From positions 159,799 through 223,798 of the forward strand of contig CAVSLC010000011.1 of NCBI GenBank assembly GCA_963728565.1: a stretch of DNA of 64,000 bases. The letters are read 5' to 3'. The position numbers and the translations under genes are program-made. The notes under the pieces were generated by a model. It was given only the letters and a program-made list of their open reading frames with translations. It did no database searches and was not told the origin of the DNA. The stretch comes from an uncultured delta proteobacterium (GTDB taxonomy: Bacteria; Desulfobacterota; Binatia; UBA9968). This document shows positions 5,865-35,358 of this stretch, one piece after another (the stretch's first letter is position 1; each line of letters opens with the position of its first letter).

Positions 5865-5922
5865 TATTCGAAACGTCGGATCTCTAGACTAGCACTGCGT
5901 ATCGTGAGATCGAAATCGGTAC

Positions 5923-5938
5923 TGTCTAATAGTGGACA
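5923..5938 (-). promoter_or_regulatory. Putative TF site, copy 1 (TGTCC-ACTATT-AGACA on the minus strand)
   Basis: Lies within a 24-bp sequence repeated exactly at 6404-6427; upstream of the kinase. Confidence 0.65.
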
Positions 5939-6100
5939 ATCGTGAAAAATATTTTGTGCGGCTCTCAAGTCTACGAAGGACCTCCGCACTGATGGTCGGC
6001 AGAGGATATTTGCGGCTCACCGCGCATATGGGTGCGATCACTGCCGGTGAGAAGTCAAGCGGCTGAATCTTCTCTGAACCTGAGAACGTTAGGCAGAGGA

Positions 6101-6199
6101 TCAGCGCTTGCCTTTAACCCGGTTCGCATCCCAATGAGCCAAATAAAATACCACTGCCAAAACAAGCACCATCACCACAAACGGGGCTACTGCTTGCAT
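6101..6199 (-). CDS. 32-aa single-TM small protein
   Basis: AAGGAGAA RBS before ATG 6199; MQAVAPFVVMVLVLAVVFYLAHWDANRVKGKR. Confidence 0.6.
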   Translation of the reverse strand: MQAVAPFVVMVLVLAVVFYLAHWDANRVKGKR

Positions 6200-6408
6200 C
6201 GTGTTCTCCTTATTTACCGGTTGAGCTGTTGATAATCTGCCGCCTTTGGACTGAGTCGCTGCCCGTGTTGTATGCAGATGGTTCGATTTCCAGGGGACAT
6301 AGAGCAAACAACCTGGAAAGCCTCAGGAAACACTATTTTGGGTGCCGCCGCGCTGATTGGGTTTGGCCTCGAGTCTCGAACTTCATATCGCGGTCCGGTA
6401 CTGGGTAC

Positions 6409-6424
6409 TGTCTAATAGTGGACA
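6409..6424 (-). promoter_or_regulatory. Putative TF site, copy 2
   Basis: Identical to copy 1; upstream of the small TM ORF. Confidence 0.65.
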
Positions 6425-6958
6425 ATCCTCAATGTGTAATTCGCCGATACTAGCGTCCTCCGCCGCACTGTATGACGTCCAAACGTCATCAAGTTACAGG
6501 GGCTTCAACAGTTGCGATAGCTCCTGCCATAGCTTCAGGATCGAAGCTGTCGGACGATATGGCAATTGCATTTCCGCTGCAACGCTTGAGTGAAAGTGCT
6601 TGCTTGGAAAGAAGAGCAAAGTTCGTTCGTTGTGTTTGGCAGTAGATCGGTATCAAAGAAATTATCGCCGCTCCGCAAAGCGAAATATTACTTGATGCAC
6701 TGCAAGAGATGAGACTGATGTGCAGCAGATCACGATAATCTCACAGCAGAGGCTCATGAGTCTGGGTCTGAACGGCATGGGGCGGTGAGTCTATGGGTTT
6801 GCGGCAACCTGATGAGGCGCGTATAAGCAATGTGCCCCTGATCTCGCGATCCGTATCATGATCAATAAGCGGAGTAAAAGTATACAAGGAATAGCTGTTT
6901 TTTTGCTTTTGAAAGTTCACAACGAGCCTTAGTATATAGGAGATTTGACCCCCAATTT

Positions 6959-9944
6959 ATGACAATGGTGGCTAGAAAAAGCGGAAAAACCTTTGCAAAA
7001 AAAGCCGCTAAGCCCGCCAGTCGGAAATTAGCCAAGGGGCGACGAACCAGCGACTCCGCTGCAGTATCTGAAGATCGGAAGGACGGCTTTCACATAGTCG
7101 GAATCGGCGCTTCTGCGGGCGGTTTGAAAGCGCTTGAAAGTTTTTTCTCAGCCATGCCGGTCAATTCCGGGATGAGCTTCATCGTAATTTCTCACCTGGA
7201 TCCAAAGCATAGCAGCATGCTGCCCGATTTGCTGAAGAGATACACCAAGATCATGGTGGACAGAGCCCAAGACGGCATAAGTGTCGAGCGCGACCGCATT
7301 TACGTCATACCGCCCAACAAAGAAATGACCCTCGTACGCGGGACGCTGGTATTGAAAAAACCTTCTGAGCCGCATGGGCAGAGATTTCCCATAGACACTT
7401 TTTTTCGCTCTTTAGCGCGGGACCGGAAGCAGCGGGCTATCTGCATCATCCTTTCGGGAACCGGTACCGACGGGACATTGGGACTCCGGGATGTCAAAGC
7501 CGAAGGCGGCATGGCGATGGCCCAGGCGACAGCGTCGGCCGAATACGATGGGATGCCTCGGAGCGCCATTGCAACCGGTCTAGTCGACTATGTCTTGCCG
7601 GCGGAAAAGATGCCGGCCCAGTTGATGAAGTATGTGAGCGAGCGACATCTTAAACGAGATGTTGGTACGCACGTGGAACAACCTGCAGAATCGATGGAGG
7701 AGTTATTCCACCTGCTTGAGTCCCAAACCGGCCATGATTTTTCATCGTATAAAAACAGCACCATCAGCAGGCGGGTTAAAAGAAGGATGGGCGTGCAGCG
7801 CATCAAGAGCCTGTCTTCCTACCTTGGTTTTATTCGACGAAATCCGTCGGAAATAGACGCCCTTTTCAAAGAATTGCTCATCGGTGTCACCCATTTTTTT
7901 CGGGATCCTGAGGCATTTAAGAGCCTGAGCAAAGTACTCAGTGCGACTTTACGGAAACACCCCAAGGACAGCACATTTCGGATCTGGACTCCCGGCTGCT
8001 CCACCGGGGAGGAGCCCTACTCGCTCGCCATCCTGCTTGATGAGTGCATGAGAAAACTTAAGAAACGCTTTCGAGTACAGATTTTCGCGACGGATGTCGA
8101 CAGCGAGGCAATCAGCTTGGCTCGCGCGGGCGTGTATTCAGAGAGCGTTGTCTTCGAACTCACGGCCGAGCGGTTGAACCGGTTCTTCCTCAAAGACAAC
8201 GGCGTATACCGCGTCAAAAAAGAAATCCGCGACATGGTGGTTTTTGCCGAACAAGATCTCATCAGGGACCCGGCGTTTAGCAAATTGGATTTAATTACAT
8301 GCAGAAACCTCTTGATCTACCTGGAAGCGGAATTACAAAAGCAGTTGTTGCGTCTCTTCCACTATGCTCTGAAGCCCGGAGGTCTTCTCTTTCTAGGCAC
8401 CTCAGAGAGCATCGGCATCTTCAGTCATTTCTTTTCTCCAGTGGATAAGAAATGCAAAATTTTTAGACGGAGGAATGGCGGAGCTTTCGCCAATGAAGCC
8501 GTTGGCGAGTTCCTTGTCAGGCCTCTAACGCATGCCCGACCCGACCTTGTGCCTGGGCGGCCCGGAAAGAAGAAGGACGACAACGGCCCGGTCATCACGA
8601 ATCTGACTGAAAAGAAGCTCCTGGAAGAATATACTTCCCCATCTGTGCTCATCAATCAGAACGGCGACATCGTGTATGCCTTCGGCCGAACTGGAAAGTA
8701 CCTGGAGCTGCCTCAGGGGCACGCCGCGTTGAATATTCACGATATGGCCCATCCAGGTATCAAAGATGCGTTGGCTGCCGCCATTCACGAATCCGCGATC
8801 CGAAAGAAACGGGTTGTGGTGGAAGGTTTGATCTCGAGCCCCGAGGCGGAACTTAAGAGGATCAAAATCAGCATCGAGCCGTTACAGGTCAAGCCGGAGG
8901 GAAGCGTCGGGATGATGGTGGTTACTTTTGAGGATATTGGCGTTGAGATGAAAGAGGGTACGCCAAAGCGTAGAGGAGGGCCATGGCACTCAACTGGAGG
9001 GCGAGTTGAAGCTTGCTCGACAGCGTCTCAAAAGGAGCATCGAAGATTTGGAGGTGTCCAACGAGGAGCTTAAATCGGCAAATGAAGAGTCTCAGTCCAC
9101 TAATGAGGAATTGCAAAGCGCGAACGAAGAATTAGAAACCTCGAAGGAGGAACTGCAATCGATTAACGAGGAACTGGTGACAGTCAATGCGGAGCTTCAG
9201 GGTAAGATCGACGAATTAACGGTCATGAACGACGACGTAAGGAATCTGCTCGATAACACAAATATTGCCACGATTTTTCTCGATAAGCAGCTGCGCATCA
9301 AGCGATTCACTCCCGCAGCGACCAAAATCGTCAATTTGATCCCAACTGATATTGGAAGACCCCTGAATCATCTTGTTTTCAACCTGGAATTGCCCGTCCA
9401 TGCGGAAGCGAAGAAAGTCCTTGAGACGCTCATCCCCAATGAGATGGAGGTGAGAAACAATGAGGGTCGATCCTACCTCAGTCGCGTCATGCCTTACCGT
9501 ACCGTGGACGACTTGGTTGACGGTGTTGTGATCACATTCACGGATATCACTGAAAGTAAGAGGGCTTTGGCCCAGCAGGAGATGCTGGATTATCTTAAGA
9601 GCATCGTCGCGACGATCCGCGATTCACTGGTGGTTCTGGATGGTGATTTGAAGGTAATTACGGCTAGCCGGTCTTTTTACCAAACCTTCCAAGTGCAACC
9701 CGAGTCCACGGAAGGGGTGTTGCTCTACGAGTTGGGCGACGGGCAGTGGAATATCCCCAGCCTGAGAGAATTGCTTGAGAAAATCCTAACCACTAACGCT
9801 TCTTTTCAAGATTTCGCCGTTGAGCATGATTTTCCTGGTATTGGACACAAGAAGATGCTCTTGAACGCCCGTAAAGTTTACCGGGAGGATATCGATACGG
9901 GCAGAATTCTGCTCGCCATCGAGGACACTACGGGAGCGCAGTGA
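6959..9944 (+). CDS. CheB methylesterase-CheR methyltransferase-PAS fusion (frameshift near 8960-9000)
   Basis: CheB motifs GASAGG, ISHLDP and GTGTDG. CheR motifs FFRDP, GCSTGEEPYS and CRNLLIY. The 9006-9944 frame supplies the EELQSxNEEL coiled coil and PAS domains typical of this single-chain family. Confidence 0.9.
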
Positions 9945-9986
9945 GCGCAAGCAGAGGCCTCTTACTCTGCGAGAAAGGCGGACTAC

Positions 9987-11600
9987 GTGATGCGCGAAAA
10001 AGATAAAGAAGAAGTCAACCTGCGTAAGAGGGCGGAGGACTTGCTGAAAAAGACCGGCAAGAGCACGCCGCGGATCGTCAATCAACGTGCTGCCGAGGTG
10101 ATCCACGAATTGGATGTGCACCGTGTCGAACTGGAGATGCAAAATGAAGAGCTGCGCAGAAGTCAGGTGAGCGCGGAAGAGTCGCAGCGCAAGTATGCCG
10201 AGCTGTACGAATTTGCCCCCATTGGCTTTTGCAGCTTTGACCGAAAGGGACAGATTCAGCAGGTCAACCTCGCCTGTGCTCAGATGCTGCGCACAGAGAA
10301 GCGTTATCTGCATAAGAGATGGTTCCGGAGTTTTGTCAGTCCCGGGTTCCGGGATGAATTCGACCGGTTGTTTCACAAGCTTTTTCAACCCGGACATCGA
10401 GAATCCTGCGAGTTGCAGCTCACGCGCCACGACGGCGGTCTAATCGATGTTGAATTGGTCGGGGGTGCGGTAGCCGATCCTGCTCTGGGCGTTGCGCATG
10501 AAAGCCAGGTCGCCATCCTCGACATTTCACAAAGAAAGAAGGCCGAAAGCTGGTTCCGCAGGCTGGTCGAAACAACCCAGGACGCGGTTTTATCCATCGA
10601 CAGAAAAGGCAGAATCGTGCTGTTCAATGCGGCGGCAGAGCGAACTTTCGGCTATAGCAGGAACGAAATAGCGGGGCAAAAAGTAAACGTACTCATGTCG
10701 GAACCCTATGTGTCGCAGCATGACGAATACATTGCTCGTTACGAGAGGACCGGCGAAGCTCACGCCATTGGCCGAATTCGCACTGTGACGGCGAAACGCA
10801 AGAACGGCGATCTGTTTCCCATTGAGCTGTCTGTCACCGAGATTCCAACCGACGAGGACGTTCACTATGCGGCGTTTATTCGCGATATATCGGACAAGAC
10901 CCGGCTGCAGGAGCAATTGGTCGAAAGCGAGCGACTCGCGGCGATCGGCGCGACGGCAGCCAAAATCGCCCATGAGATTGCCAATCCGCTTAACAATATC
11001 TATATGACCACTCAATTACTGGAGCGCGAGCTGGCGAAGGAGGAGATCCCGGTGCATGGACAGCTCGCATCCGATCTTAAGACTATCATCAGCGAGACTG
11101 CCCGTCTGAACGCATTGCTGCAGCAATTCCGCATGATCTCACGGAAGGAGACGTATGACTTTCATCCGGTAAGTATCGCTGCGCTGATCAAAGAGGTAGC
11201 GGACACTTGCCGCGCGATTTGGGCGCATCAGAAAATTCATTTCGACCACCTCTCTGAGCCGAATCTCCCATCGATCTCTGCCGACCGTGACAAATTAAAA
11301 CAGGTCCTCCTTAATCTCTACAAGAACGGCGCGGAGGCCATGCCCGGCGGCGGCAAGATCACCGTCAAGGCGTCGTCGACGGAAACTGGCGTTCTTGTTG
11401 AAATTACTGACACCGGCACGGGGATTCCGCCGGATATGGATATCTTCGAACCCTTCGCCACGACCAAAATCGGCGGAACGGGTATCGGCATGGTGGTGGT
11501 TCGTCAAGTAGTCACGGCCCACGGCGGATCGATTACGTACCACAGTGAACCGGGCAAAGGGACGTCATTCTTCATTGCGTTACCGGCTTTAAAAAGTTAG
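9987..11600 (+). CDS. PAS-PAS histidine kinase
   Basis: HELDVHRVELEMQNEEL coiled coil; second PAS is FixL-like (HDEYIARY..TGE.H.IG); IAHEIANPL; HATPase boxes. Confidence 0.92.
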   Translation: MMREKDKEEVNLRKRAEDLLKKTGKSTPRIVNQRAAEVIHELDVHRVELEMQNEELRRSQVSAEESQRKYAELYEFAPIGFCSFDRKGQIQQVNLACAQMLRTEKRYLHKRWFRSFVSPGFRDEFDRLFHKLFQPGHRESCELQLTRHDGGLIDVELVGGAVADPALGVAHESQVAILDISQRKKAESWFRRLVETTQDAVLSIDRKGRIVLFNAAAERTFGYSRNEIAGQKVNVLMSEPYVSQHDEYIARYERTGEAHAIGRIRTVTAKRKNGDLFPIELSVTEIPTDEDVHYAAFIRDISDKTRLQEQLVESERLAAIGATAAKIAHEIANPLNNIYMTTQLLERELAKEEIPVHGQLASDLKTIISETARLNALLQQFRMISRKETYDFHPVSIAALIKEVADTCRAIWAHQKIHFDHLSEPNLPSISADRDKLKQVLLNLYKNGAEAMPGGGKITVKASSTETGVLVEITDTGTGIPPDMDIFEPFATTKIGGTGIGMVVVRQVVTAHGGSITYHSEPGKGTSFFIALPALKS

Positions 11601-11627
11601 ATCAAATGTTGCGCGGCGCCGCCGCAA

Positions 11628-12308
11628 TCAGGCGATTTGCGCGAGATAGTCGGTGAGCTTATTTTCTTTGATGACGAGAAAACGGTCTTTGTTGGTCTCG
11701 ATTAATCCCAGGTTGTGAAATCTTTGCATAAACAAGCTGATCCGGGGCCGGGTGGTCCCGACCATCTCCGACAATTCTTCGTGCGTAATCCTAAGCTCGA
11801 TGCGAATACTGCGCGGGTCCTTCTTGCCCATGGTCCGGGCCAGCTGCAACAATGTCTGGCCCAGCCGCTGCTCGCTGTCGACCGTCACCAGATTGGCGAT
11901 GATCTGCTGCTGGTCGGCGATGCGCACGGCGAGGTAACGCACGAACCCCTGCCAGAGCGAATCCCGGCCTAAACGCGCGAAGAATTGAATGGAAGGTATT
12001 TGCTTTAAGCTCGTTGACTTCATCGCAGTGGCTGTCTCCAAGCGTTCGCCCAAACCGGAGAGGCACAGCTCGCCGAAGATGTCGCCCTCAGTGTGGATGC
12101 CCAGTATGCATTCTTTGCCTTCGCTGGAGAGCATTAACAGCTTTACTTGTCCGGTCTCGATAAAATAGATCATCCCGTCGCCATCGCCACTATTGTAGAC
12201 ATTTTCATGTCGCGGGACTTTGACGGAGCGGGAATTGAGCGTTTCGTTCTGCAATGAATCGCGTAACTGTTGTTTGAACTTGTCTATCTCAGGATTATCT
12301 TGAATCAT
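11628..12308 (-). CDS. Crp/Fnr-family transcriptional regulator
   Basis: cNMP-type domain (GQVKL...GDIFGELCL) and HTH ITHEELSEMVGTTRPRISLFM. Confidence 0.93.
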   Translation of the reverse strand: MIQDNPEIDKFKQQLRDSLQNETLNSRSVKVPRHENVYNSGDGDGMIYFIETGQVKLLMLSSEGKECILGIHTEGDIFGELCLSGLGERLETATAMKSTSLKQIPSIQFFARLGRDSLWQGFVRYLAVRIADQQQIIANLVTVDSEQRLGQTLLQLARTMGKKDPRSIRIELRITHEELSEMVGTTRPRISLFMQRFHNLGLIETNKDRFLVIKENKLTDYLAQIA

Positions 12309-12792
12309 AATGGCTCCTTCCGATCCGCTCGATTATTGCGCGGGGCGGGTATGCCTCGCGCGACTCGGCGTCGTTGTTGCGAGCGATGGAGCGTGTTTTT
12401 GCTAGATATCTTTTTACCTCGAATATCTTGTTCAAGGTATCCCGAGCTTATCGCGTATCTCTTCCGCGTCAAGGCCGAGCCCAGCACAGATGCTCACAAA
12501 TGAATACGGTGAATGCTGATCATCGCTGAAGAACCATCTCGTCGCCTCCTGCGCCCTGCGGCCGCTGCTGATGAGGCGAGCCGGCGAACTTTTCCTGAAA
12601 ACAGAGTAACGCATCCTCGAGCACGGCATACATCAGAGCTGTCTCCGGACACACGCTAGCGAGGCTGATTCGAGTATTGAAGAACTGTTCCGGAAGCGCG
12701 TTGATATTGGATCGTCGGTCATGCAAGCCGTGCCGTTGTCGAGCCTCGGACCGGCGATGTTTTGGGCTGACTGGGGCACGTTTGGAGTACAT
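12305..12792 (-). CDS. Conserved hypothetical protein (PE-x-ALM-x-AVLEDA...SFVSIC-x-x-LGLD), split by one or two frameshifts
   Basis: Track ORFs 12520-12792, 12432-12629 and 12305-12487 join into one coherent protein; the last frame's TGA overlaps the crp ATG (ATGA). Confidence 0.6.
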
Positions 12793-12856
12793 ATCATTCT
12801 CCGATATTTAAATTCCAATGTGAGTTGATCATGGGTTCGCCGTTTGTGAATCGATT

Positions 12857-14314
12857 TTAACCGACACTGCCCTCAAGGCTGACGCCCAAAAGTTTCTGCG
12901 CCTCGACGGCAAATTCCATCGGCAGCTCGCGAAAGACCTGTTTACAAAAACCATTGACGATCAGAGTGACAGCGTCTTCAGGCGAAATGCCGCGCTGCCG
13001 GCAGTAGAAGAGCTGATCCTCACCGATCCTCGATGTCGAGGCCTCATGCTCCACCTGTGATGAGTTGTTCATCACCTCAAGGTAGGGGAAGGTATGCGCG
13101 CCGCATTTATCGCCCAGGAGCAACGAATCACATTGCGAATAATTGCGCGCACCGGCAGCGCCCTTCATGACCTTCACTAGCCCCCGATAGGTGTTCTGCC
13201 CGTGGCCGGCCGAGATTCCCTTCGAAATGATCGTGCTTTTGGTGTTCTTGCCAATATGGATCATCTTGGTGCCGGTATCGGCCTGCTGATAGTTGTTGGT
13301 GAGCGCCACCGAGTAAAATTCACCCACCGAGTTGTCGCCTTGCAGTATGCAGCTGGGATACTTCCAGGTAATTGCCGATCCGGTCTCCACCTGGGTCCAA
13401 GAGATCTTAGAGTTTTTACCCAGACACTTGCCGCGCTTGGTGACGAAATTGTAGATCCCCCCCTTGCCGTCCTTATCGCCCGGATACCAGTTCTGTACGG
13501 TCGAGTACTTGATCTGCGCGTTGTCCAGAGCAACCAGCTCCACCACGGCGGCATGCAGTTGATTTTCATCGCGCATCGGCGCCGTGCAGCCCTCAAGGTA
13601 GCTGACGGAACTACCCTCATCGGCAATGATCAAGGTGCGCTCAAATTGCCCTGTTTCAGCAGCATTGATGCGAAAGTAGGTCGAAAGTTCCATCGGACAG
13701 CGCACGCCTCTGGGGATGTAACAGAACGATCCATCACTGAAGACAGCGGCGTTCAAGGCGGCGAAAAAGTTATCGCTGTACGGCACCACCGAGCCAAGAT
13801 ATTTTCTAACGATGACTGGATGCTTCTGCACCGCTTCCGAAAACGAACAAAAGATAACTCCCAACGACGCCAGCTTATCCTTGAATGTCGTCGCTACCGA
13901 AACGCTGTCGAAGACTGCGTCAACGGCGACGCCGGTCAGCCATTTTTGCTCCAGCAACGGAATACCCAGCTTGTCATAGGTCTCGAGCAGCTTGGGATCG
14001 ACTTCTTCGAGACTCTTTGGCCCCACGTTGGTCTTGGGCGCCGAATAGTAGATGAGGTCCTGATAATCGATTGCCGGATAGTGGACATTGGCCCATTTTG
14101 GCTCGGCCTGAGACTTTGCCAGCTTGACCCAGTGGCGGTAGGCCTTTAGACGCCAGTCCAGCATAAAACTCGGTTCGTTCTTTTTGGCCGAAATCAAACG
14201 GACAGTTCCCTCGTTGAGGCCGCGCGGCACGGTGTCAGTTTCAATTTCCGTAACAAACCCATACTTATATTCCTGGCTGACCAGGTCCTCGGTTGTTTGT
14301 GTGGCATTGTTCAT
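12857..14314 (-). CDS. sufB: Fe-S cluster assembly scaffold SufB
   Basis: [55 protein letters not shown]. Confidence 0.97.
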
Positions 14315-14398
14315 GGCTGCAGTTTTCCTATTCAGGAGACTCGTTAGCGGCTCTCTACGTTAGTAACTTAAAAGTACACCGGCATCCGATGTAATTAC

Positions 14399-14414
14399 TG
14401 TCTAATAGTGAACG
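14399..14414 (-). promoter_or_regulatory. Putative TF site, copy 3 (CGTTC-ACTATT-AGACA), upstream of sufB
   Basis: Shares TACTGTCTAATAGTG with copies 1 and 2; TACTTT -10-like hexamer 22 nt downstream. Confidence 0.65.
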
Positions 14415-14573
14415 ATTTCAGAGTCTCAAGACTCCAGAGCAGGTCGGCGGCGTACGCCGCGGCATCAAAGCGAGTTGGCCGGCAACCAGCCTTACACCAT
14501 TCGTTGAGTTCCCGGGCTGGTCAGGCTCTGCTGCTTCTGAGGAATTCGCGTTAGATCAGGTAGATACGCTTAT

Positions 14574-14912
14574 TTAATTCTGTTTAACCTTTGCAAAGCA
14601 GCGATCGAAAAACGCTCCCAAGGGACCGCGCGCCGCCTTTCTCATAATTCCATGCAGCTCGGCTGGTTTTAGCCAAATGCCTTGACAGCTGTCACAGCGG
14701 TGTAGGACAAAGCCCATGAAGCCATACTTTTCGAGTTTGCCCGCGCACATGGGACAGTTACCGACCTGTCTTTCCCGTCTGGCTGCTTCAGCGTTTTGAA
14801 AGTCGACCTTCATCTCGTCAATGCGTTCATGCTCTTTTAACGCAAAATACCTGTCTTCGTTGGCTCGCTCGTCAAACTCTACGTTTTCACCGAAGCGATT
14901 TTGATTTTTCAT
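14574..14912 (-). CDS. zf-TFIIB-like Zn-ribbon protein
   Basis: CPMC...CDSCQGIWL..EL; N-terminal EDRYF helix. Confidence 0.8.
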   Translation of the reverse strand: MKNQNRFGENVEFDERANEDRYFALKEHERIDEMKVDFQNAEAARRERQVGNCPMCAGKLEKYGFMGFVLHRCDSCQGIWLKPAELHGIMRKAARGPLGAFFDRCFAKVKQN

Positions 14913-15018
14913 GGCTCTACCTCATTTTTAATAACTCTTGGCCTGACGCAAAATTGCATTCCGCCTCAATCTAATTCTGCTCTTCTCGTCGGCCCCTTTG
15001 CTTCCCAATCCCAGTGAT

Positions 15019-15345: not shown

Positions 15346-15363
15346 ATTGAGTATCTCCTTTGC

Positions 15364-15870: not shown

Positions 15871-16448
15871 AAAAGCCTCCTTGATACCCAGCGACGACCG
15901 TACCGTGTCGGAGCGATGCCAGCAGGTCCGATCGTTGGTGTAAGTGCGATCCTGGAAGGAGAGGACGATGTTCCGCTATTGATCGCCCTTACCTTGCGTT
16001 GATATGCCGCTGCTGAGACGAGAACTGTACGCGGCCAATGACTGATGACCGCCGCGGAAGAATTTTCGTGAAAGTCTCTCGAATCTCCTGTGAACCCGCG
16101 CCCTACTCATAATCGCCTGCGGATTGTAGAGTTGATAACGGTAAGAGCAAACTTTAAGTGTGGACCTAATAAGTCCATGTTGCAATAGACACCTAGCTAC
16201 TCTTGGAGTATTGCAGGCTAAACAACAACGCGCTCTGCCGGTGTGAGTGAAGATGGGTTCGGCTCGAAGTGGGGAGTCAACCTCAAGCGGGTTGTGAAAG
16301 GCCTCGGGGCAGTCTAGTTTGCCTCTGGCGGCAAACGCCAAATTTAACCATCGTCCGTCGGATGGACGTGTGGCGGGCAGAATATCAGCGGCGAGCGCTA
16401 CCGATCACGCCGCTGTAAGATAGTGTGTCCCTCAACAGAGCAATGATT

Positions 16449-16892: not shown

Positions 16893-16964
16893 AGCTCGGG
16901 TGTCGCAATAGGGCTTTATTGCTAACGATTTCCATCCGACGCCGGTATCTGCTATGGTGCGGCT

Positions 16965-17153
16965 ATGGGAAATCAAACATATCAGAAGCGTCAGAAAGAG
17001 TTGGCGCGGTCACAAAAGAAAAAGGACAAGGCTGCGCGCCGGATACAACGGAAAACGGAAAAGGTAAAAGGCGGGCCGCCGTTGGAGGACGATCCCATGA
17101 CCGGCGGCCGAATGACCTCCGAGTCAAGCCTGCAATCTTCTCCTGCCGTTTGA
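16965..17153 (+). CDS. Small basic protein (TYQKRQKELAR..KK.DK)
   Basis: Lys/Arg-rich helical N-terminus of a type seen beside RRM and cold-shock genes. Confidence 0.6.
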   Translation: MGNQTYQKRQKELARSQKKKDKAARRIQRKTEKVKGGPPLEDDPMTGGRMTSESSLQSSPAV

Positions 17154-17253
17154 GAAGGACCGCTCTCCTCGGCAACTAACCAGTCCTCCGGAAGCACGAT
17201 CTGCGCCTCTGCAGAACGTGTGTCGGCGCTGCAATAGCCGCCTCGGAACTTAG

Positions 17254-17282
17254 TTGACATCATTCCGGTTTATACATAGGTT
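17254..17282 (+). promoter_or_regulatory. Sigma70-like promoter of the RRM gene
   Basis: TTGACA-N17-TAGGTT, implying a leader of about 190 nt. Confidence 0.55.
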
Positions 17283-17481
17283 GAGTTATCTTCTTCAGTA
17301 AAAGGCCTTCTGAGGAAAATAAAAGGCGCGAAGGCCTCTGATCAGTCTCTCTCCTTGCGAAGCAATCTATGAATGAGAATCCGACCGGAGCGTGGTAGAA
17401 TCCCAGTTTACCCATGTTCTGCCCATTTGCAGTGCGGTTCTCAGGGTCAAAGACAATAACATTCTCTCATAGGAGGAGAAC

Positions 17482-17796
17482 ATGGGTAGTAAATTATATG
17501 TCGGCGGATTGCCTTATTCCGTAACCGAGGGACGCTTACAAGAACTTTTTTCGGCGCACGGTACGGTAGAATCCGCGAATGTCATCTCGGATAAATTTAC
17601 CGGGCAATCACGAGGTTTCGGTTTTGTCGAGATGAGCTCGTCTGGCGAGGCGCAAAGAGCGATTTCCGCGATGAATGGTACGCAATTGGATGGCCGCACT
17701 CTGACTGTTAATGAAGCCAAGCCGCAGGCCAGGCGCGATGGCGGCGGGGGCGGCGAAGGCCGCGGCAACCGCGATGGCGGCCGTAACCGCTGGTAA
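17482..17796 (+). CDS. RRM RNA-binding protein (Rbp type, glycine-rich tail)
   Basis: RNP2 LYVGGL, RNP1 RGFGFVEM, AGGAG RBS. Confidence 0.96.
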   Translation: MGSKLYVGGLPYSVTEGRLQELFSAHGTVESANVISDKFTGQSRGFGFVEMSSSGEAQRAISAMNGTQLDGRTLTVNEAKPQARRDGGGGGEGRGNRDGGRNRW

Positions 17797-17820
17797 TTTC
17801 GCAGTCCTCTAAGGGGATCA

Positions 17821-17857
17821 AAATAGGGGGCAACGGTCGGGTGCCCCCTATTTTTTT
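17821..17857 (+). terminator. Intrinsic terminator
   Basis: ATAGGGGGCA...TGCCCCCTAT stem followed by a T-run. Confidence 0.88.
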
Positions 17858-18298
17858 GTAAAGCCTTTCGGCTATCTCGCGTCCTCATCCAGCGTTGATT
17901 CAGATCGATGCTGAACCGATTGCTTCACATGTGGAAAAATTTACATCCGTCACGCCGACTCTCCTTTCGCGCGAGCACGAGCTCTCACCTCAAAGGTGAA
18001 CGGTTTCAGCCCATCCTGAAATGATTAAGCGGGTCGGCGGTAATGAGAGGTAATCCGCGCGAAGGATCAATCTTTACGGTATAGCATTCGACACGTGTTG
18101 ACTTCAGGGGGTATCTTTATCGTCGGGGTCTGTTATAGTCAGCGCGATGTAACTACTGGCAAGCCAAAGTCCAAAATTGAATTCGCTCGGTCCAATTCGG
18201 CCGAGTTTCAAAGAGGCGGCCCCTAGGGTAACCGCCTCTTTACATTTTTCATCCGGGAATAACAAAATCGTCGCGGCTGCCAAGAAGAAGATTCCATT

Positions 18299-20587
18299 AT
18301 GCAACAGAACTCCAGCCATTCCCCCATCAAACGCATCGCATTCATTGGCAATTACCTACCGCGCCAATGCGGCATCGCCACATTCACGACGGACTTGTGC
18401 GAAGCTATCGCCGCCGAACACAGTGACACGACCTGCATTGCCGTGCCGGTTAACGATATCGAAGGCGGCTATGCCTATCCTTCACGTGTTCGCTTCGAGC
18501 TGGTGGAGAAAGATATCGAGTCGTATCACCGCGCCGCCGACTTCTTGAACATCAACAGCGTGGATCTGGTATCTCTCCAATTTGAATACGGCATCTTCGG
18601 TGGACGGACAGGGTCCCACATCCTGGCGCTGCTGCGTGAGCTGCGCATGCCCATCGTGACGACTCTGCACACAATATTGCGCGAACCGGACCAACATCAA
18701 CGCCGGGTTCTGGAAGAAGTTGCCGCATTGTCGGATCGGTTGGTCGTCATGACCAGGCGAGGTGCGGAATTCCTCGAAGAAATTTACCGTGTATCGCCGG
18801 ACAAGATCGATATAATTCCGCACGGTATTCCGGACATCCCTTTTGTCGACCCTAGTTTTCACAAAGACCTTTTCGGCGTCGAAGGCAAAACGGTTTTGCT
18901 CAGTTTTGGTTTGCTGTCGGCGAACAAGGGAATCGAGAATGTCATTGCCGCTCTGCCCGCTATCTTGGCCAAACATCCGAACGTGGTGTATTTTATCGTC
19001 GGGGCCACTCATCCCCACGTTTTGAGGCACGACGGCGAAGCCTATCGTTTGTCACTGCAGTGGCTGGCCCAAGAGAAAGGCGTAGAAGGTCAGGTGATCT
19101 TCTACAACCGGTTTGTCAGTTTAGAGGAGCTCGTTGAGTTTATCGGCGTCACGGATATTTACATCACCCCTTATCTCAATCCCGCCCAGATCGTTTCCGG
19201 TACGCTCGCTTATACCGTGGGTGCTGGCAAGGCCGTTATTTCGACCCCGTACTGGCATGCCGAAGAGATGCTGGCCGAAGAGCGCGGCGTGCTGGTACCG
19301 TTTCGAGATTCGACGGCGTTGGCCGAGCAGGTTATTGAATTATTGGATAACGAGGCGAAGCGCAACGCAATGCGCAAGCGCGCCTATCTGTACGGCCGCG
19401 AGATGATCTGGCCGCAAGTCGCGCATCAATACATGAATAGTTTTCAACGGGCTAAGGTAGAACGGCGCCACTTCAGTCCTCCCGGCTTCGTGGTCAAAGC
19501 GTTGGATAAAAGTCCGGCCGAGCTGCCGCCCCTGAAACTTGATCACTTACGCCGTATGACCGACGACACCGGCATGTTGCAGCATGCTATATTTACCGTG
19601 CCCAACTACTGCGAAGGCTACACGATCGACGATAACGCTCGCGCTTTGATGGTGAGCACGCTGTTAGAAGAACTTGGCACTGAAGAAACGGCGGACTTAA
19701 CCTCACGTTATTTCGCTTTTGTCTGGTATGCCTTCAATACCGAAACCCGGCGCTTTCGCAACTTCATGAGCTATCAGCGCAACTGGTTGGAAAAAAATGG
19801 TTCCGATGACAGCCACGGCCGAACCTTATGGGCGCTAGGTACCGTGCTGGGCCGCTCCAATACGCCTGCCCTCCAGAGTATGGCCGGCTGGGTCTTTGAA
19901 AAAGCGCTACCCGCCATTCTGAAGACCACTAGCCCACGGGCATGGGCGTTCGCGCTGCTCGGCATCGATGAATATCTGCACCGCTTTGCCGGTGACCGCA
20001 GAGTCACCCAAACGCGTGAGGAATTGGCCGGGCGGCTGCTCAGGTTGTATCAAAAAAATCGCGCGGAGGAATGGCACTGGTATGAGGAGTCGCTGACCTA
20101 CTGCAATGCTGCGCTGCCGCATGCATTACTTATGTGCGGACACGGAATGCCGAACAATTCCATGACCGACGCCGCTCTGGAATCGCTCAAATGGTTGGCC
20201 AATTTGCAGCGCGCCGACACCAGTGGAGGTCATTTCGTGCCTATCGGCTCGAACGGATTTTATCGACGCGGAGGCGAGCGTGCGCGCTTCGATCAGCAGC
20301 CGGTGGAGGCACAAGCCATGGTATCGGCCTGCCTCGCCGCACATCGGGTGACGGGAGATAAGAATTGGCACAAAGAAGCGCGGCGCGCCTTTGACTGGTT
20401 TCTCGGGCGCAACGATTTGAATCTGCCGATTTACGATCCGACAACCGGCGGATGCCGCGACGGCTTGCATCCGGATCGCCCGAACGAAAATCAAGGCGCT
20501 GAATCCTCGCTCGCCTTTCTCCAGGCGGTGCTCGAACTACGCTTGGCTGAGACGAACTTACTATCCGTTGAAACAGGAGCTCGATGA
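18299..20587 (+). CDS. GT4 glycosyltransferase fused to a C-terminal glycosidase-like helical domain
   Basis: YLPRQCGIATFT, FGLLSANKGIE, SGTLAY..G.GK..ISTPY; C-terminal GYTIDDNARAL, FDQQPVE, NQGAES. Confidence 0.92.
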   Translation: MQQNSSHSPIKRIAFIGNYLPRQCGIATFTTDLCEAIAAEHSDTTCIAVPVNDIEGGYAYPSRVRFELVEKDIESYHRAADFLNINSVDLVSLQFEYGIFGGRTGSHILALLRELRMPIVTTLHTILREPDQHQRRVLEEVAALSDRLVVMTRRGAEFLEEIYRVSPDKIDIIPHGIPDIPFVDPSFHKDLFGVEGKTVLLSFGLLSANKGIENVIAALPAILAKHPNVVYFIVGATHPHVLRHDGEAYRLSLQWLAQEKGVEGQVIFYNRFVSLEELVEFIGVTDIYITPYLNPAQIVSGTLAYTVGAGKAVISTPYWHAEEMLAEERGVLVPFRDSTALAEQVIELLDNEAKRNAMRKRAYLYGREMIWPQVAHQYMNSFQRAKVERRHFSPPGFVVKALDKSPAELPPLKLDHLRRMTDDTGMLQHAIFTVPNYCEGYTIDDNARALMVSTLLEELGTEETADLTSRYFAFVWYAFNTETRRFRNFMSYQRNWLEKNGSDDSHGRTLWALGTVLGRSNTPALQSMAGWVFEKALPAILKTTSPRAWAFALLGIDEYLHRFAGDRRVTQTREELAGRLLRLYQKNRAEEWHWYEESLTYCNAALPHALLMCGHGMPNNSMTDAALESLKWLANLQRADTSGGHFVPIGSNGFYRRGGERARFDQQPVEAQAMVSACLAAHRVTGDKNWHKEARRAFDWFLGRNDLNLPIYDPTTGGCRDGLHPDRPNENQGAESSLAFLQAVLELRLAETNLLSVETGAR

Positions 20588-21543
20588 CCAACCAACATCA
20601 GGAACTTTTTCGCCGTCAGAAAACCAATCCTATATTGAGCGCTACCGATTGGCCCTATCCAATCAACAGCGTTTTTAATCCGGGCGCGACTTTGCTGGCG
20701 GATGGCACGACTCTGCTGTTGTGCCGCGTCGAAGACAGGCGCGGCCATTCTCATCTGACTGTCGCTCGTTCTACCAACGGCGTGGACAATTGGCAGATCG
20801 AATCACGGCCTACTTTCCGAGCCGACCCTGAACAGTTCCCCGAAGAGCTCTGGGGCATCGAAGATCCACGCATTACCTATGTCCCCGAGTTGAGCAAATA
20901 TGCTGTCGTTTATACCGCTTTCACACGCGACGGGCCGGGAGTTTCACTTGCGCTCACAGAAGATTTTCATAAATTCGAGCGCTACGGCGTCATCATGCCG
21001 CCGGAAGACAAGGATGCGGCTTTGCTTCCCTACCGGATCGAAGGGCAGTGGGCGCTGATCCACCGCCCGGTCAGTGCTCCACGAGCGCACATGTGGTTGT
21101 CTTATTCGCCGGACCTGCGCCACTGGGGCAATCACAAGTTGATGTTAGAGGCACGTCGCGGAGCATGGTGGGATGCCAATAAAATCGGTCTCTCACCGCC
21201 ACCGATCGAAACCCCTCAAGGGTGGCTGGTGATTTACCATGGCGTACGCCATACCGCGGCGGGCTCCATCTACCGGCTGGGGCTTGCTCTATTTGATTTG
21301 TACGCCCCGGAACATTGCTTGAAGCGCGGCGACGAATGGATTTTCGGCCCGCAAGAAACCTACGAGCAGCGCGGCGACGTCGACAACGTGGTATTTCCAT
21401 GCGGGTACACGATGGCGCCTGACGGCGATACTGTTCGGATATATTACGGCGCCGCAGATACCACCATCGGGCTGGCGACAGGTAGCTTGCGCGCGATGCT
21501 GGACTGGCTTGAGAAGCATCAATCAAAAATTGTCGAGCGCTAG
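20584..21543 (+). CDS. GH130-like glycosidase/mannoside phosphorylase
   Basis: VFNPGA, GIEDPRIT, DKDAAL, IHRP, NVVFPCG, YYGAAD; ATGA overlap with the GT gene. Confidence 0.92.
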   Translation: MTNQHQELFRRQKTNPILSATDWPYPINSVFNPGATLLADGTTLLLCRVEDRRGHSHLTVARSTNGVDNWQIESRPTFRADPEQFPEELWGIEDPRITYVPELSKYAVVYTAFTRDGPGVSLALTEDFHKFERYGVIMPPEDKDAALLPYRIEGQWALIHRPVSAPRAHMWLSYSPDLRHWGNHKLMLEARRGAWWDANKIGLSPPPIETPQGWLVIYHGVRHTAAGSIYRLGLALFDLYAPEHCLKRGDEWIFGPQETYEQRGDVDNVVFPCGYTMAPDGDTVRIYYGAADTTIGLATGSLRAMLDWLEKHQSKIVER

Positions 21544-21597
21544 AAATCTTTTTTAAACGAGGCGGGCGTGAGCGCGAGCGTCTCGATCGAGGTCAAC

Positions 21598-21828
21598 GTG
21601 AACAATAATCTTCTATACAAAAATTATTTCATCGATTGTGAATCATTCCAGCGCGAGAAGCACGGCAGCTGGGTTCCGCAATACACAATCACCCGGCAGG
21701 TAACTGAATCAAATGAGTTCCCGTCGCATCAGTATCAATTCACTCATACATTGCCCACTAAAAACGAGGCCGACTGTTTCGCCGTGCAAAAGGCACAGGA
21801 GTGGATCGACAAGAACCAAAAACCCTGA
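21598..21828 (+). CDS. Small hypothetical protein (Y.I...F/L.T..EA..FA...A..WID family), copy A
   Basis: GAGG RBS plus GTG; paralogues at 25361 and 25752. Confidence 0.7.
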   Translation: MNNNLLYKNYFIDCESFQREKHGSWVPQYTITRQVTESNEFPSHQYQFTHTLPTKNEADCFAVQKAQEWIDKNQKP

Positions 21829-22108
21829 GGAGTTCTGTGGGGTGGAATTACCTTGACGATGATGAAATGTATCTCGAGGAGAGTTCGTCGCTATCTCGAT
21901 TTCCTGCCAGAGCGCAGATTCTCTTCAGGGCAAGATTGACAAGCGCCTCAATTGAGACTGATGCTCTTCTGGCTGTTTGCCGACCAATATCCCTCTGATA
22001 TCACATACCATCGCTTTGTGGTGCGCAGCGGCACCACAAGCTGATTTGAACCCGCAATCCTGCCTTGACTGGTTTGCTTCTACTGGGAGATTCTCAGATT
22101 GATTCTTT

Positions 22109-22124
22109 TGTTCAGTATTGGACA
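22109..22124 (+). promoter_or_regulatory. Putative TF site, copy 4 (TGTTC-AGTATT-GGACA)
   Basis: Matches the motif; followed by GCAATCC as in copy 6; upstream of ORF 22208. Confidence 0.55.
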
Positions 22125-22207
22125 GCAATCCCTCTGCAGGGATGTGCAAGGTAAGCGAATGCGACCCGTGATAGAGCCCTAACGGATTGAACCGTTGAGA
22201 AAACATT

Positions 22208-22480
22208 ATGATGATTGTGCTAGGTCACTTCCTTATTGCAGCAGCAGCCGCAATCGCAACATCAGCGATCATCGGGTATTTTCTTACTAAATTGCTGCTT
22301 CGGTTACTTCAAAAGGTGGATCGTTCGATCAGACTTTACAGAGGGAAGGTCCCTGCGTTTTCTGCTCCCCGCATCTCACCGACGCCGCTCTCAAACGTAT
22401 CAAAGAGCTTCTCCGGCAATGGAGCAGAAGAAGTTTGGGAGTACACAGACCCGGCTCCCAGAGAAAAAGTCGTGATATAG
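22208..22480 (+). CDS. Small membrane-anchored hypothetical protein
   Basis: N-terminal hydrophobic helix; downstream of motif copy 4. Confidence 0.45.
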   Translation: MMIVLGHFLIAAAAAIATSAIIGYFLTKLLLRLLQKVDRSIRLYRGKVPAFSAPRISPTPLSNVSKSFSGNGAEEVWEYTDPAPREKVVI

Positions 22481-22702
22481 AAAAAGGCCTCCCTCAACGC
22501 CAAGCAAAATGATGTATAGGTCGAAAAGAGGCGTTGCCACGATTGTTACGCCGGAGGCTGTGGGTCCAGGTTCTCTAAAAGCGATATATAAAGATAGATA
22601 AGCGGCTGAGCGCGTTTCTTTCGAAACATCGAAGGTTGCCGGTGGAATAACTGCGCGGCCAATCGGGCGTGATTCCCTTATTGCAAGAATTCTTTTCTAC
22701 CC

Positions 22703-22718
22703 TGTTCACTATTAGACA
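22703..22718 (+). promoter_or_regulatory. Putative TF site, copy 5 (TGTTC-ACTATT-AGACA)
   Basis: 15/16 identical to copies 1 and 3. Confidence 0.62.
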
Positions 22719-22947
22719 AGGCGCAATTGCTTCCAGCCTAGACGATGGTTATCTTAAACATCGATACGCAGCTGTGTAATGGATTTTCAAAAGCTGTAAT
22801 GGCGCGCAAGAGGTAAGAAGACTGGGCCACGCTCTGAGCAGTGGCATGGGCTTCCGCTCCGGTTTGATTAGCGAACGTATTCCGCGGTTCCCCCACTCCC
22901 TCTTCCAATATCCGAAGGCTATCAGGAGCCCTTCAAGGAGAGAGTTT

Positions 22948-23511
22948 ATGAATCCTCTATATATTATCGCCATCCCGTTAGCGTTGGTGATCATAGGCAT
23001 GATTTTGAACAGCACCGGCCTTGCTTACGATCAACCACCGAGTTCACAAGAACAAGATCCTACGAAAAAACTGGCGGCGGATAAGGAGACCTACCGGAAG
23101 TTCTTCAATCTCCAGAGAACCCGATCGGTCACCAGGCAGAAAAGGGTGGGCCAGTATAGCTGGTTGGTTATGGCCGCCTTTATCGGCGCCTTCATCTGGC
23201 TCTATACCGATACCGTCAACAAGACCAGCCTGTCGAGTCGCATTGCCGGGATGCAAACCTTGGCAACGGAAGAAGGCAAGCAGATGGTCCTGTCGGTGAC
23301 ACAGAGCGACGGCACCAACGTCAAATATCTGATTAAATTACCTCAAGCCGACAAACTGGCGGAAACCACTAAAGCACAAGAAGCCGTTACCAAAGAAAAG
23401 GTCTCATCCTGGGAGCTGGAGAGACTGGGCACGGCTTTGAGCATCGGCAATAATTCACTGCCAAACGGCATCGCGCTGCAGATGTCCCAAGCAGCAGTCG
23501 AAGCCAGATAG
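22948..23511 (+). CDS. Two-TM hypothetical protein, paralogue 1
   Basis: AAGGAG RBS; protein nearly colinear with 26205-26744 despite many synonymous differences. Confidence 0.85.
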   Translation: MNPLYIIAIPLALVIIGMILNSTGLAYDQPPSSQEQDPTKKLAADKETYRKFFNLQRTRSVTRQKRVGQYSWLVMAAFIGAFIWLYTDTVNKTSLSSRIAGMQTLATEEGKQMVLSVTQSDGTNVKYLIKLPQADKLAETTKAQEAVTKEKVSSWELERLGTALSIGNNSLPNGIALQMSQAAVEAR

Positions 23512-23534
23512 AGTCCGGATTCTAGGGATCCACA

Positions 23535-23570
23535 TCAGGCTTGAGGTGGCGAGTCGCACCTCAAGCCTGA
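23535..23570. terminator. Strong hairpin after paralogue 1
   Basis: Perfect 14-bp stem TCAGGCTTGAGGTG/CACCTCAAGCCTGA; weak T-tail. Confidence 0.6.
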
Positions 23571-24072
23571 GATTGTTATCCCGACGTTTAGTTGTCTCCA
23601 GTTGATGATCGCCCTAGATGACGAAAATCGCAGCGCCGATCATCTAGCAGAACAACTGCGAGGTATCGAATCCAATATTCCCGACGTCGTCAAATTACTG
23701 CAACAGATTTCTGAACAGCAGAAACAGTATCGCGGCGAAGTTAGAGAAATGCTGATGCGGAGCGATCCATTCGCGTTCTCGCTTGCCTGACGTTCTATAG
23801 GTCCGTGAATTCTTTGTCCTCTTGGGCACCGGTACAAGTGTAAAGATCCTAGAATAGCCGGAGCTGCTAACGTAAATGCGGTAATTGTACTTGCGGTTCG
23901 CTCGAGGTGGACACACTGGAGACTTCCATGAAATCGCCCGTTACGTTTGGAAAAAAACTGCAGTGATCCCGATGCCAAGAAGCTTCTGCCGCCGATCCGG
24001 CTTACGGATTATGCCATGAGCAACTGGGCCACTCACCTATTCGCTCGCCGAGAGCAGTACTCGAGAAGAGCA

Positions 24073-24960
24073 ATGAATCTGAAAGCGCCATGGATGCTCA
24101 TCAAGGATACCTTTGTTCAATGGCTCGACGATAACCCGCTCCAATTAGCGGCTGCGCTGGCTTATTACACTTTATTCTCCATGGCTCCTCTCCTGTTGAT
24201 CGCGATCGCGGTCGCTGGCTTAGTGTTCGGGCGGGACGCTTCCCAACTTCAGATTATCGGGGTGATTGAGGATTTCATCGGAGTTCGTGGTGCACAGGCA
24301 ATCCAGGCGATAATCGAAAGCGCAGGTCAAAGGCCCGACTCAGGTTTTTTCGCCTCCGTTATAGCCATCATTTTCTTGTTTTTGGGGGCGGGAGGTGTAG
24401 TAGGACAGCTGCAAGAATCGCTTAATACAATTTGGCGAGTCGTGCCGAAAACCGGTCGAGGGGTCAGAGGGTTTTTGCAGGACCGTTTGATCTCTTATCT
24501 AATGGTGTTAAGCGTCGGCTTCTTGTTACTCGTCTCTTTAATAATCAGCGCGGCGTTAGCAGTGATTTCGGGAATACTCGGCGGCTTTCTGACCATCGAC
24601 GCTGCTACGGCATACGCTTTAGATCTCGCTTTCTCGTTTGCGTTCAACACACTGCTGTTCGCCGCGATATATAAATTCGTGCCTGACGTGCGCATTGAAT
24701 GGCGGGATGTCTGGATGGGAGCTGCCATGACGTCCTTGCTATTTTCCGCCGGCAAATTCTTGATCGCCTTTTATCTGGGTCACAGCACGGCGACATCCAT
24801 TTATGGTGCGGCCGGTTCAGTGGTGACGCTGCTTTTGTGGATCTACTATTCATCACTTATGTTCTTCTTCGGTGCCAAGTTAACCCAAGTCTACGCGAGC
24901 CGGTACGGATCTAAAGCCACCTCCGTGAACTGTGCGCGAAGCGCTAAACCGGCGGACTAA
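24073..24960 (+). CDS. YihY/BrkB family membrane protein (second copy)
   Basis: AAALAYYTLFSMAP, LNTIW, YGAAGSVVTLLLWIYYS. Confidence 0.9.
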   Translation: MNLKAPWMLIKDTFVQWLDDNPLQLAAALAYYTLFSMAPLLLIAIAVAGLVFGRDASQLQIIGVIEDFIGVRGAQAIQAIIESAGQRPDSGFFASVIAIIFLFLGAGGVVGQLQESLNTIWRVVPKTGRGVRGFLQDRLISYLMVLSVGFLLLVSLIISAALAVISGILGGFLTIDAATAYALDLAFSFAFNTLLFAAIYKFVPDVRIEWRDVWMGAAMTSLLFSAGKFLIAFYLGHSTATSIYGAAGSVVTLLLWIYYSSLMFFFGAKLTQVYASRYGSKATSVNCARSAKPAD

Positions 24961-25030
24961 AGATTGGAAATCTACGTAAGGTTCTCCGAGTCAAACTGGG
25001 CGATCGATACAGACGAGCGGCCAAAAGTGC

Positions 25031-25225
25031 TTGCAGAAACTTAGACGCTATATCGACCCCAACGACTATCTAGTGATGATGCCTCTTGATCGGGGTTTAT
25101 TAACCTCGGGGCGGCGAGAAGAATTCACCACGTACACTTCTGACAAGAGTTTTACGAGTCCCCAAGAAACACAGATGGAGGCGATCGCAGACACTCGAAA
25201 ATGGATCGATAGCCGGTAAGCCCGT
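25031..25225 (+). pseudogene. Degenerate member of the small ...WID family
   Basis: C-terminus KSFTSPQETQMEAIADTRKWIDS resembles FPTKAEAARFALEVAKKWIDDGKP of 25361; no clear start. Confidence 0.4.
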
Positions 25226-25295
25226 TCTAACGAGGGCGGGGTTAATAGCACGGATTAATGAGGCCAGTCCTTTAGCCTGTATAATGTTTGAGACG

Positions 25296-25311
25296 TGTCT
25301 CGTACTAGACA
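25296..25311 (+). promoter_or_regulatory. Putative TF site, copy 6 (TGTCT-CGTACT-AGACA)
   Basis: Perfectly palindromic arms, about 50 bp upstream of ORF 25361. Confidence 0.55.
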
Positions 25312-35308: not shown

Positions 35309-35358
35309 AGATACAGAGCAAATTGGCGCCGCATGCCAGGATCCGAGCCTGAGATAGG

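Follow-up and report, generated by a model that had tools for sequence, protein, structure and literature searches.

A palindromic promoter box as the probable operator of a distinct Crp/Fnr subfamily and a predicted stress-protection regulon in Binatia and Acidobacteriota

In the class II promoter model of Escherichia coli, a dimer of CRP or FNR occupies a 16-bp site centred at −41.5, and the −35 element is poor or absent. Here, a 64-kb stretch of DNA (hereafter the window) from an uncultured delta proteobacterium of the Binatia (contig CAVSLC010000011.1, positions 159,799 to 223,798) was analysed, which contains six copies of a 16-bp palindrome (hereafter the box) and encodes a Crp/Fnr-family regulator of 226 aa (P0121, 11628–12308, − strand). 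A first-pass annotation had proposed that these copies define the regulon of this protein. Our results indicate that the box is probably the operator of the 11628–12308 product and of its close paralogues in related genomes; the 11628–12308 product would act by class II activation and drive six units in the window.

The closest described systems are Crp-family proteins that read boxes of a similar type. In the sites of the CRP family, positions 2, 3, 14, and 15 form a shared core, and positions 4 and 13 discriminate between the members (PMC5758884). The glutamate by which CRP-Mt contacts 4G/13C corresponds to Pro209 in Cmr (Rv1675c) of Mycobacterium tuberculosis, which prefers 4C/13G (PMC5758884). 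The window protein likewise has a proline at this place (Glu181 of CRP, Glu189 of CRP-Mt), and the window boxes, with C or T at position 4 and G or A at position 13, resemble the 16-bp GT/AC-core box of Cmr with its preferred TGTC...GACA (PMC5758884). If the window protein binds the box, it would add an independent case to the rule that proline at the Glu181 place of CRP goes with C at operator position 4. Unlike in Cmr, the targets and the organism are different, and the two proteins are at best distantly related, because Cmr was not among the PDB matches listed for the window protein. The consensus box of CooA, TGTC-N8-GACA (PMC7306483), is matched by the boxes found here, and the recognition helix of Carboxydothermus CooA-1 (PDB 2fmy/2hkx) reads GTTRQTVS against GTTRPRIS in the window protein. 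Unlike CooA, however, the latter has a sensor domain nearer to cyclic-nucleotide binders, and no CO dehydrogenase or hydrogenase genes were found among 146 open reading frames (ORFs) located downstream of boxes or in the window. MrpC of Myxococcus xanthus, which is similar in motif and role, binds as a dimer to an imperfect palindrome (TGTYN8RAC), and its own programme covers starvation and dormancy and includes its own gene (PMC4320627). MrpC acts in concert with FruA and undergoes proteolytic processing, and no counterpart of either was noticed here.

The half-sites of the box differ from TGTGA (CRP) and TTGAT (FNR), as the first-pass annotation had pointed out, but they are not unprecedented, because CooA, Cmr, and MrpC read boxes of the TGTC/TGTY-N8-GACA/RAC type. 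By their description, DdrI of Deinococcus radiodurans and SdrP of Thermus thermophilus also resemble the system proposed here, being Crp-family regulators connected with stress or stationary phase and not with carbon catabolism; SdrP is reportedly stress-linked, and Crp-family structures of Thermus were weak PDB matches of the window protein. Literature searches for the box sequence, for Crp regulons of Binatia or Acidobacteria and for the general stress response in these phyla gave no relevant match beyond the CooA paper, and nothing was found on the regulation of stress genes in Binatia and Acidobacteriota or on this Crp clade. The text of a paper on the Crp/Fnr meta-regulon contains no TGTC-type motif (PMC8510549).

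Scanning of the window located the six 16-mers exactly where they had been reported, that is, at 5923, 6409, 14399, 22109, 22703, and 25296. Lack of enrichment over shuffled DNA had been named as a result that would speak against an operator, and it was not observed: the pattern YGTY-N7-RGACA gave 10 strand matches in the window versus 3.06 ± 1.84 in dinucleotide-preserving shuffles (n = 100), none of which reached 10. These matches represent the six box places, three of them on both strands, and one weak place at 57450. The looser pattern TGTY-N8-RACA was found eight times versus 2.46 ± 1.67, and 2 of 100 shuffles reached this number. When the window was scanned with a position weight matrix (PWM) trained on 157 oriented boxes of other genomes, with the window and its closest relatives (loci L001–L003) left out, the top six positions were the six boxes (15.5–24.5 bits), the next match scored 5.9 bits, and no box appeared anywhere between 26 and 64 kb. 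All six copies sit between family-supported genes and are overlapped by short ORFs alone, none of which matched Pfam; hence, the description of the boxes as intergenic and confined to the 5–26 kb part stands.

Box 1 (TGTCCACTATTAGACA, 5923–5938, − strand, 24.5 bits) lies ahead of a gene for a histidine kinase with a HATPase_c domain (5013–5822, −), the likely start of which is the ATG at 5822 following AAAGGAG. Box 2, identical in sequence and score, is located at 6409–6424 (−), and its candidate target is a gene for a 32-residue hydrophobic peptide (6101–6199, −) with a strong AAGGAG ribosome-binding site; L001 encodes this peptide, too, behind the orthologous box. The exact 24-nt repeat previously noticed around these two copies proved to be part of a 65-nt duplicated promoter module (5882–5946 and 6368–6432, 74% identity), which extends from the box through the predicted −10 element. 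Box 3 (CGTTCACTATTAGACA, 14399–14414, −, 22.1 bits), conserved in L001 and L002, precedes sufB (12857–14314, −), whose product is a true SufB, as it matched NF008773 with 914 bits versus a cut-off of 717 and also had a Pfam match. On the + strand, box 4 (TGTTCAGTATTGGACA, 22109–22124, 24.2 bits), conserved in L001, stands before a gene for a membrane-like protein of 90 residues without a known family (22208–22480), and box 5 (TGTTCACTATTAGACA, 22703–22718, 22.8 bits) before a gene for a 187-residue protein of no known family (22948–23511), which has a paralogue at 26205–26744 and starts at the ATG at 22948, not at 22846. Box 6 (TGTCTCGTACTAGACA, 25296–25311, 15.5 bits), the weakest copy, precedes a gene for a 76-residue protein without a family (25361–25591). 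The TA-starting hexamers reported downstream of three sites were likewise found: the predicted −10 elements TACGCA (5901–5896), TATGAA (6387–6382), and TACTTT (14376–14371), all on the − strand, follow boxes 1, 2, and 3 after gaps of 21, 21, and 22 nt, respectively.

To compare the box across relatives, one genome per species was scanned, which gave 211 stretches encoding a relative of the Crp protein, and 75 loci comprising 989 kb were returned. The family consensus of the box is TGTCCAATATTGGACA, a perfect palindrome. In these loci and the window together, it was matched 4, 34, 63, and 50 times at 0, 1, 2, and 3 mismatches, respectively, while a model of independent, identically distributed bases expects about three matches in total. 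In the 75 loci alone, 147 positions matched at up to three mismatches versus 0–5 in ten first-order Markov shuffles, and at least one such box was present in 64 of the loci. Positions 2–3 (GT) and 14–15 (AC) form an invariant core, with C or T at position 4 and G or A at position 13. The density of boxes was 0.29/kb within 1 kb of the crp gene and 0.04–0.14/kb at a distance of 6–10 kb, and 37 of 88 crp genes had a box promoter less than 200 bp from their stop codon, pointing away from the gene. Orthologous promoters that carry the box retain it while their flanks diverge. Such footprints were seen at the kinase gene in L010 and L022, at a desaturase gene in L006 and L026, at the 187-residue family in L043, which has the same box as box 5 ahead of its orthologue, and at box 6, whose place is kept in L003 ahead of a homologous small gene as GGTCCATTATTAGACA followed by the same GCAATCCG flank in otherwise diverged DNA.

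Alignment of the boxes revealed an asymmetric surrounding, with a T-rich tract about 7–14 nt upstream, G at position 17 and AAT at 19–21, and then T at 38, A at 39, and T at 43; the conservation ends within about 45 nt of the box. By the flank signature G.AAT (positions 17–21) alone, 137 of 189 unique boxes could be oriented. In 66 of these 137 cases, a TANNNT hexamer began 21 nt downstream of the box, which is also the spacing at box 1, and in a further 10 and 6 cases the distance was 22 and 20 nt, respectively; the same offsets (21, 22, and 20 nt) in the opposite orientation gave 2, 0, and 1 cases, and other offsets gave 0–7. The best match to TTGACA at a spacer of 16–18 nt was 2/6 in 43 and 3/6 in 23 of the 66 promoters, the −35 place of which typically reads CAGCAA. 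Since there is no usable −35 element and the −10 spacing is fixed at 21 nt, the geometry is that of activation, and the box promoters have the predicted layout of class II activator-dependent promoters, with the centre of the box at −41.5 if transcription starts 7 nt past the −10 hexamer, as assumed for these predicted start sites. The view of the box as a 5-6-5 operator of the Crp/Fnr type at −41.5 thus gained support from the enrichment in relatives, the fixed gap and the missing −35 element. The A/T-rich tract just upstream, where the C-terminal domain of the alpha subunit might dock, is a further likeness to the class II promoters of E. coli; unlike those, the half-site is TGTCC and not TGTGA or TTGAT, and the regulator failed the CRP and FNR cut-offs.

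According to the mechanism we propose, a dimer of the Crp protein would bind the predicted box near −41.5, substitute for the missing −35 element and activate the housekeeping RNA polymerase, as happens at class II CRP/FNR promoters. In the window, this would drive the genes for the histidine kinase, SufB, the 32-residue membrane peptide, and three more proteins that are small or unknown, and read-through past sufB could reach a small unknown gene and crp; across the relatives, the same promoters would precede a gene set of general-stress type. Crp/Fnr proteins are also known to repress at some promoters. The same protein might bind the box but mainly repress by occluding the −35 region, so that the targets are switched on when it leaves, and the position of the box at −49 to −34, where a bound protein can block RNA polymerase, agrees with this. 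We consider repression unlikely, because the match to the −35 consensus was 3/6 at best in all 66 promoters whose −10 element is well placed, so they would be weak without an activator, and because the strict 21-nt phasing is a hallmark of class II activation, while a repressor needs no fixed helical register.

The proposed binder of the box is the Crp protein. Its recognition helix, GTTRPRISLFM, contains the TTRPRISL originally read from the sequence, and both of its domains were identified above the cut-off, namely the cyclic-nucleotide-binding-like beta-barrel (PF00027, 49.4 bits vs. 27.5) and the C-terminal Crp-type helix-turn-helix (PF13545, 51.5 bits vs. 27). The full-length PDB matches included GlxR, CRP-Mt, CooA, NtcA, and CRP. 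No named NCBIfam family was reached: the scores were 60 bits versus 266 for CRP (NF008732), 52.6 versus 228 for FNR (NF008365), and 55.5 versus 244.95 for NtcA (TIGR03697). The N-terminal cysteine cluster of FNR was not found in the protein, which has two cysteines only, at positions 67 and 82. Its helix reads R-P-R-I-S-L instead of the Arg-Glu-x-x-x-Arg of CRP, with boxes of TGTCC or TGTTC and not TGTGA, and position 4 of the box is C or T, not the A of the GTA-N8-TAC box of NtcA. The best solved match of the DNA-binding domain alone was CooA-1 of Carboxydothermus (E = 2.7e-10; next, 7.7e-6), while the sensor domain alone matched the PKA regulatory subunit best (E = 8.8e-9), with CooA not among the best matches listed.

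The helix G[TS]TRPR[IV]S was found in 82 of the 88 homologues encoded in the loci, the other six, unmatched by the pattern, being mostly truncated ORFs, and the sequence identity was 86.5% in the DNA-binding domain and 77% in the beta-barrel (800 sampled pairs of 75 full-length proteins). In the phosphate-binding cassette, FGEL..L and the arginine were kept in all 85 pattern-readable homologues out of the 88. The residue after this arginine is usually Leu and not Ser or Thr, and in the alignment the C-helix shows an invariant DQQQ in place of the adenine-contacting Thr/Ser. Cys67 and Cys82, which lie near the cassette, were conserved in 81 and 83 of the 88 proteins, respectively. Judging from these features, the regulator would respond to a small ligand, and a cyclic nucleotide or a thiol-based signal is possible as the effector.

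At E ≤ 0.001, 4525 relatives of the protein were found. The best 120 were 71–98% identical to it, and most of those with a named source were labelled as metagenome-assembled genomes (MAGs) of Candidatus Binatia. The closest loci were L001 (CAVUZH010000008.1) with 98% and L002 (DASUVS010000128.1) with 97% identity. Distant copies of 73–76% identity occurred in records labelled Acidobacteriota, Blastocatellia, and others. MAG records may be mis-binned. Among 1.84 billion cluster representatives, 158 clusters matched at E ≤ 1e-30, many with a GTTR[PST]R helix and an FGE.CL cassette; thus, the clade of the window protein is sizeable and uncharacterised. In 12 loci, two to four crp genes were present, with up to four in one locus of 20.7 kb. 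The paralogues are direct neighbours in L056, L072, and L074, whereas a single gene separates them in L033 and L044; several copies are located at the end of a contig. This clustering and the 73–76% identity to the Acidobacteriota copies suggest an expansion of paralogues and possibly transfer across phyla.

Another DNA-binding protein, such as a different Crp/Fnr paralogue, a zinc-ribbon protein or a response regulator, might read the box, with the Arg-Pro Crp protein being merely one of its targets. Any factor residing in loci selected by their Crp protein would co-occur with the box as well, crp genes themselves lie behind boxes in some loci, and a zinc-ribbon gene and a second Crp-like family (251 aa) were present in 14 and 6 loci, respectively. 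No other regulator family, however, was found in more than 15 of the 75 loci, and box density is highest beside crp. Furthermore, a 5-6-5 palindrome with GT/AC at positions 2–3/14–15 is the Crp/Fnr core (PMC5758884), and an Arg-Pro helix predicts the 4C/13G seen in the boxes, which makes a different binder quite improbable. That the box is no protein operator at all is hardly credible: it is true that TAGACA is similar to TTGACA, that two of the window copies arose with the duplicated 65-nt module and that many boxes lie shortly past the crp stop codon, but chance is excluded by the enrichment in the window and the loci, the first-pass alternatives of a −35 box or a sigma-54 enhancer are ruled out by the 21 nt between TAGACA and the −10 element, too far for a −35, and by the sigma-70-type TANNNT found downstream instead of a GG-N10-GC sigma-54 promoter, a terminator hairpin disagrees with a stem of just 5 bp with no T-run after it, and a mobile repeat with conservation ending about 45 nt from the box.

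Binding of the box by the Crp protein, with activation and not repression, would account best for these data. Several observations weigh against this interpretation. The loci had been chosen through their Crp protein, so the co-occurrence of box and protein has no Crp-free control set; the internal controls are limited to the decay with distance from crp and the 38 kb of the window in which no box lies. No box at up to three mismatches was present in 11 of the 75 loci, among which L050 counted as empty solely because its two boxes had been removed as duplicates of the overlapping L004. Many sites belong to paralogous promoters, for example those just past crp, therefore the box counts are not all independent events. 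Taken alone, box 6 is borderline, because its 15.5 bits fall below the best match in 30 Markov shuffles of the window (17.1 bits), and three of the six window sites have no TANNNT hexamer but only weak ones (CAAGGT, TAGACG, and AAAGAT). The genes of the loci were called by a crude longest-ORF heuristic. Orientation by the asymmetry of the box ends agreed with the nearest such ORF in just 37 of 61 cases (37 vs. 24) and was dropped in favour of the flank signature. Within 4 kb upstream, 44 of 74 crp genes had no co-directional box. Finally, cyclic AMP is not assured as the ligand, because Leu follows the cassette arginine and DQQQ replaces Thr/Ser.

As to the genes predicted to be under the control of the box, 165 box promoters oriented by the flank and/or the −10 element were considered, and for each of them the nearest plausible ORF downstream was taken as a target. 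A downstream ORF was found for 160 promoters and reached a stop codon in 155, and 146 ORFs of at least 40 residues were scanned after one duplicate had been removed. A Pfam match was obtained for 75 of them and none for the remaining 71. Small membrane peptides of DUF5670 (10 ORFs, two of them weak) and CsbD-like proteins (seven, one under the cut-off) were the most frequent, followed by Hsp20, CarD, Ysc84, fatty-acid desaturase, and Crp itself (four each), FtsH, DUF3309, SufB, and LapA-domain proteins (three each), and superoxide dismutase, histidine kinase, receiver-only response regulator, PAS-GGDEF, and OmpA (two each). Among the families seen just once are BON, glycine zipper, entericidin, MlaC, MlaE, phosphoglucomutase, and a GT4 glycosyltransferase. 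A gene for a ThsB-like TIR-domain protein (L012, 883–1278), the first ORF past a perfect consensus box, was an unexpected member of the predicted regulon. Genes for Lon, ferritin-like proteins, hemerythrin, VIT1, and flotillin were also present in the crp neighbourhoods of the loci. The kinase and several small unknown proteins had been predicted to be under the control of the box, and both parts gained support, as the box was kept at five of seven kinase orthologues and small unknown proteins dominate the predicted targets.

In its composition, the target set is similar to general stress regulons known from other bacteria. Judging from the genes that follow the boxes, this is most likely a stress-protection regulon of Binatia and Acidobacteriota governed by a new Crp/Fnr subfamily. 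More tentatively, and with considerable doubt, the Crp paralogues, sharing one helix and one box but differing in their sensors, might be the master switch of a general stress or dormancy response in these phyla. If so, they would do what alternative sigma factors (sigma-B, sigma-S, and EcfG) do elsewhere, with several sensors acting on one operator. Both phyla are abundant, and most of their members are uncultured; the box, its geometry, and the regulator together make a precise hypothesis. The box could also serve as a search tool by which dozens of small unknown proteins may be annotated as one stress-linked regulon, and it could be applied directly to metatranscriptomes of soil that is drying or starving.

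The regulator gene itself may belong to the regulon. A distance of 2.09 kb separates the sufB box from the downstream, co-directional crp in the window as well as in L001 and L002, with a small gene alone between sufB and crp, and this arrangement recurs solely in these two closest relatives. Scanning of the 11500–14600 region for promoters and terminators gave no terminator in the interval from sufB to crp; a single terminator-like hairpin, which overlaps the −10 element of sufB, was regarded as a chance occurrence. Autoregulation through a sufB-small gene-crp transcript, as proposed earlier, is thus plausible in the window. Elsewhere, a box promoter was located at most 400 bp upstream of crp in 4 of 88 crp genes. 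Upstream DNA of at least 1.5 kb was available for 74 crp genes, and 30 of these had a co-directional box within 4 kb upstream and no opposed gene of at least 100 aa in between; consequently, feedback appears to be common in the family, but not universal.

The small gene between sufB and crp (12437–12792, − strand), which has no known family, immediately precedes crp in 13 loci and has its own box in four. It is intact in L001 (141 aa), while the window copy differs from those of L001 and L002 by three separate single-base insertions. They shift the reading frame after about residue 70, and it is restored close to the end; either an indel error of the assembly or a pseudogene could be the reason. 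The CheB-CheR ORF (6959–9073, +, 704 aa) and the PAS ORF (9006–9944, +, 312 aa) share 68 nt, read in different frames, and their counterpart is a single ORF of 998 aa in L002 and of 1148 aa in L044, which suggests a second frameshift in the window.

A conserved 5′ leader of about 155 nt (22793–22947, +) was observed ahead of the gene for the 187-residue protein. Its counterpart precedes the paralogous gene (26745–26867, −), and the leader also occurs at 16263–16385 in L043 and from about 10130 in L005, 9980 in L022, and 3330 (−) in L024; the members of the protein family are 179–187 aa long. It contains an invariant TGGCGCG[CT]AAGAGG block and a downstream CCTCTTCC block, which might pair, but no convincing consensus fold was obtained for the leader (−3.1 kcal/mol, one compensatory pair). 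No Rfam family was found in the window, and ARAGORN found no tRNA.

The box-free part of the window contains other gene groups. A KaiC-family double-domain ATPase (62207–63784) near the window end, a hemerythrin (58256–58789), and a DJ-1/catalase-C-domain protein (60680–61216) are encoded without a box. The 33592–37645 and 41155–43853 segments, with no box nearby, encode a TIR/FGE-sulfatase fusion, an Imm8-like immunity protein, two AAA_22/STAND-like ATPases, and SIR2, a gene set resembling anti-phage defence. Between 44102 and 58141, eight paralogues of NMT1/THI5-like substrate-binding proteins are encoded among genes for an acyl-CoA ligase-type AMP-binding enzyme, enoyl-CoA hydratase, and DHDPS-family proteins.

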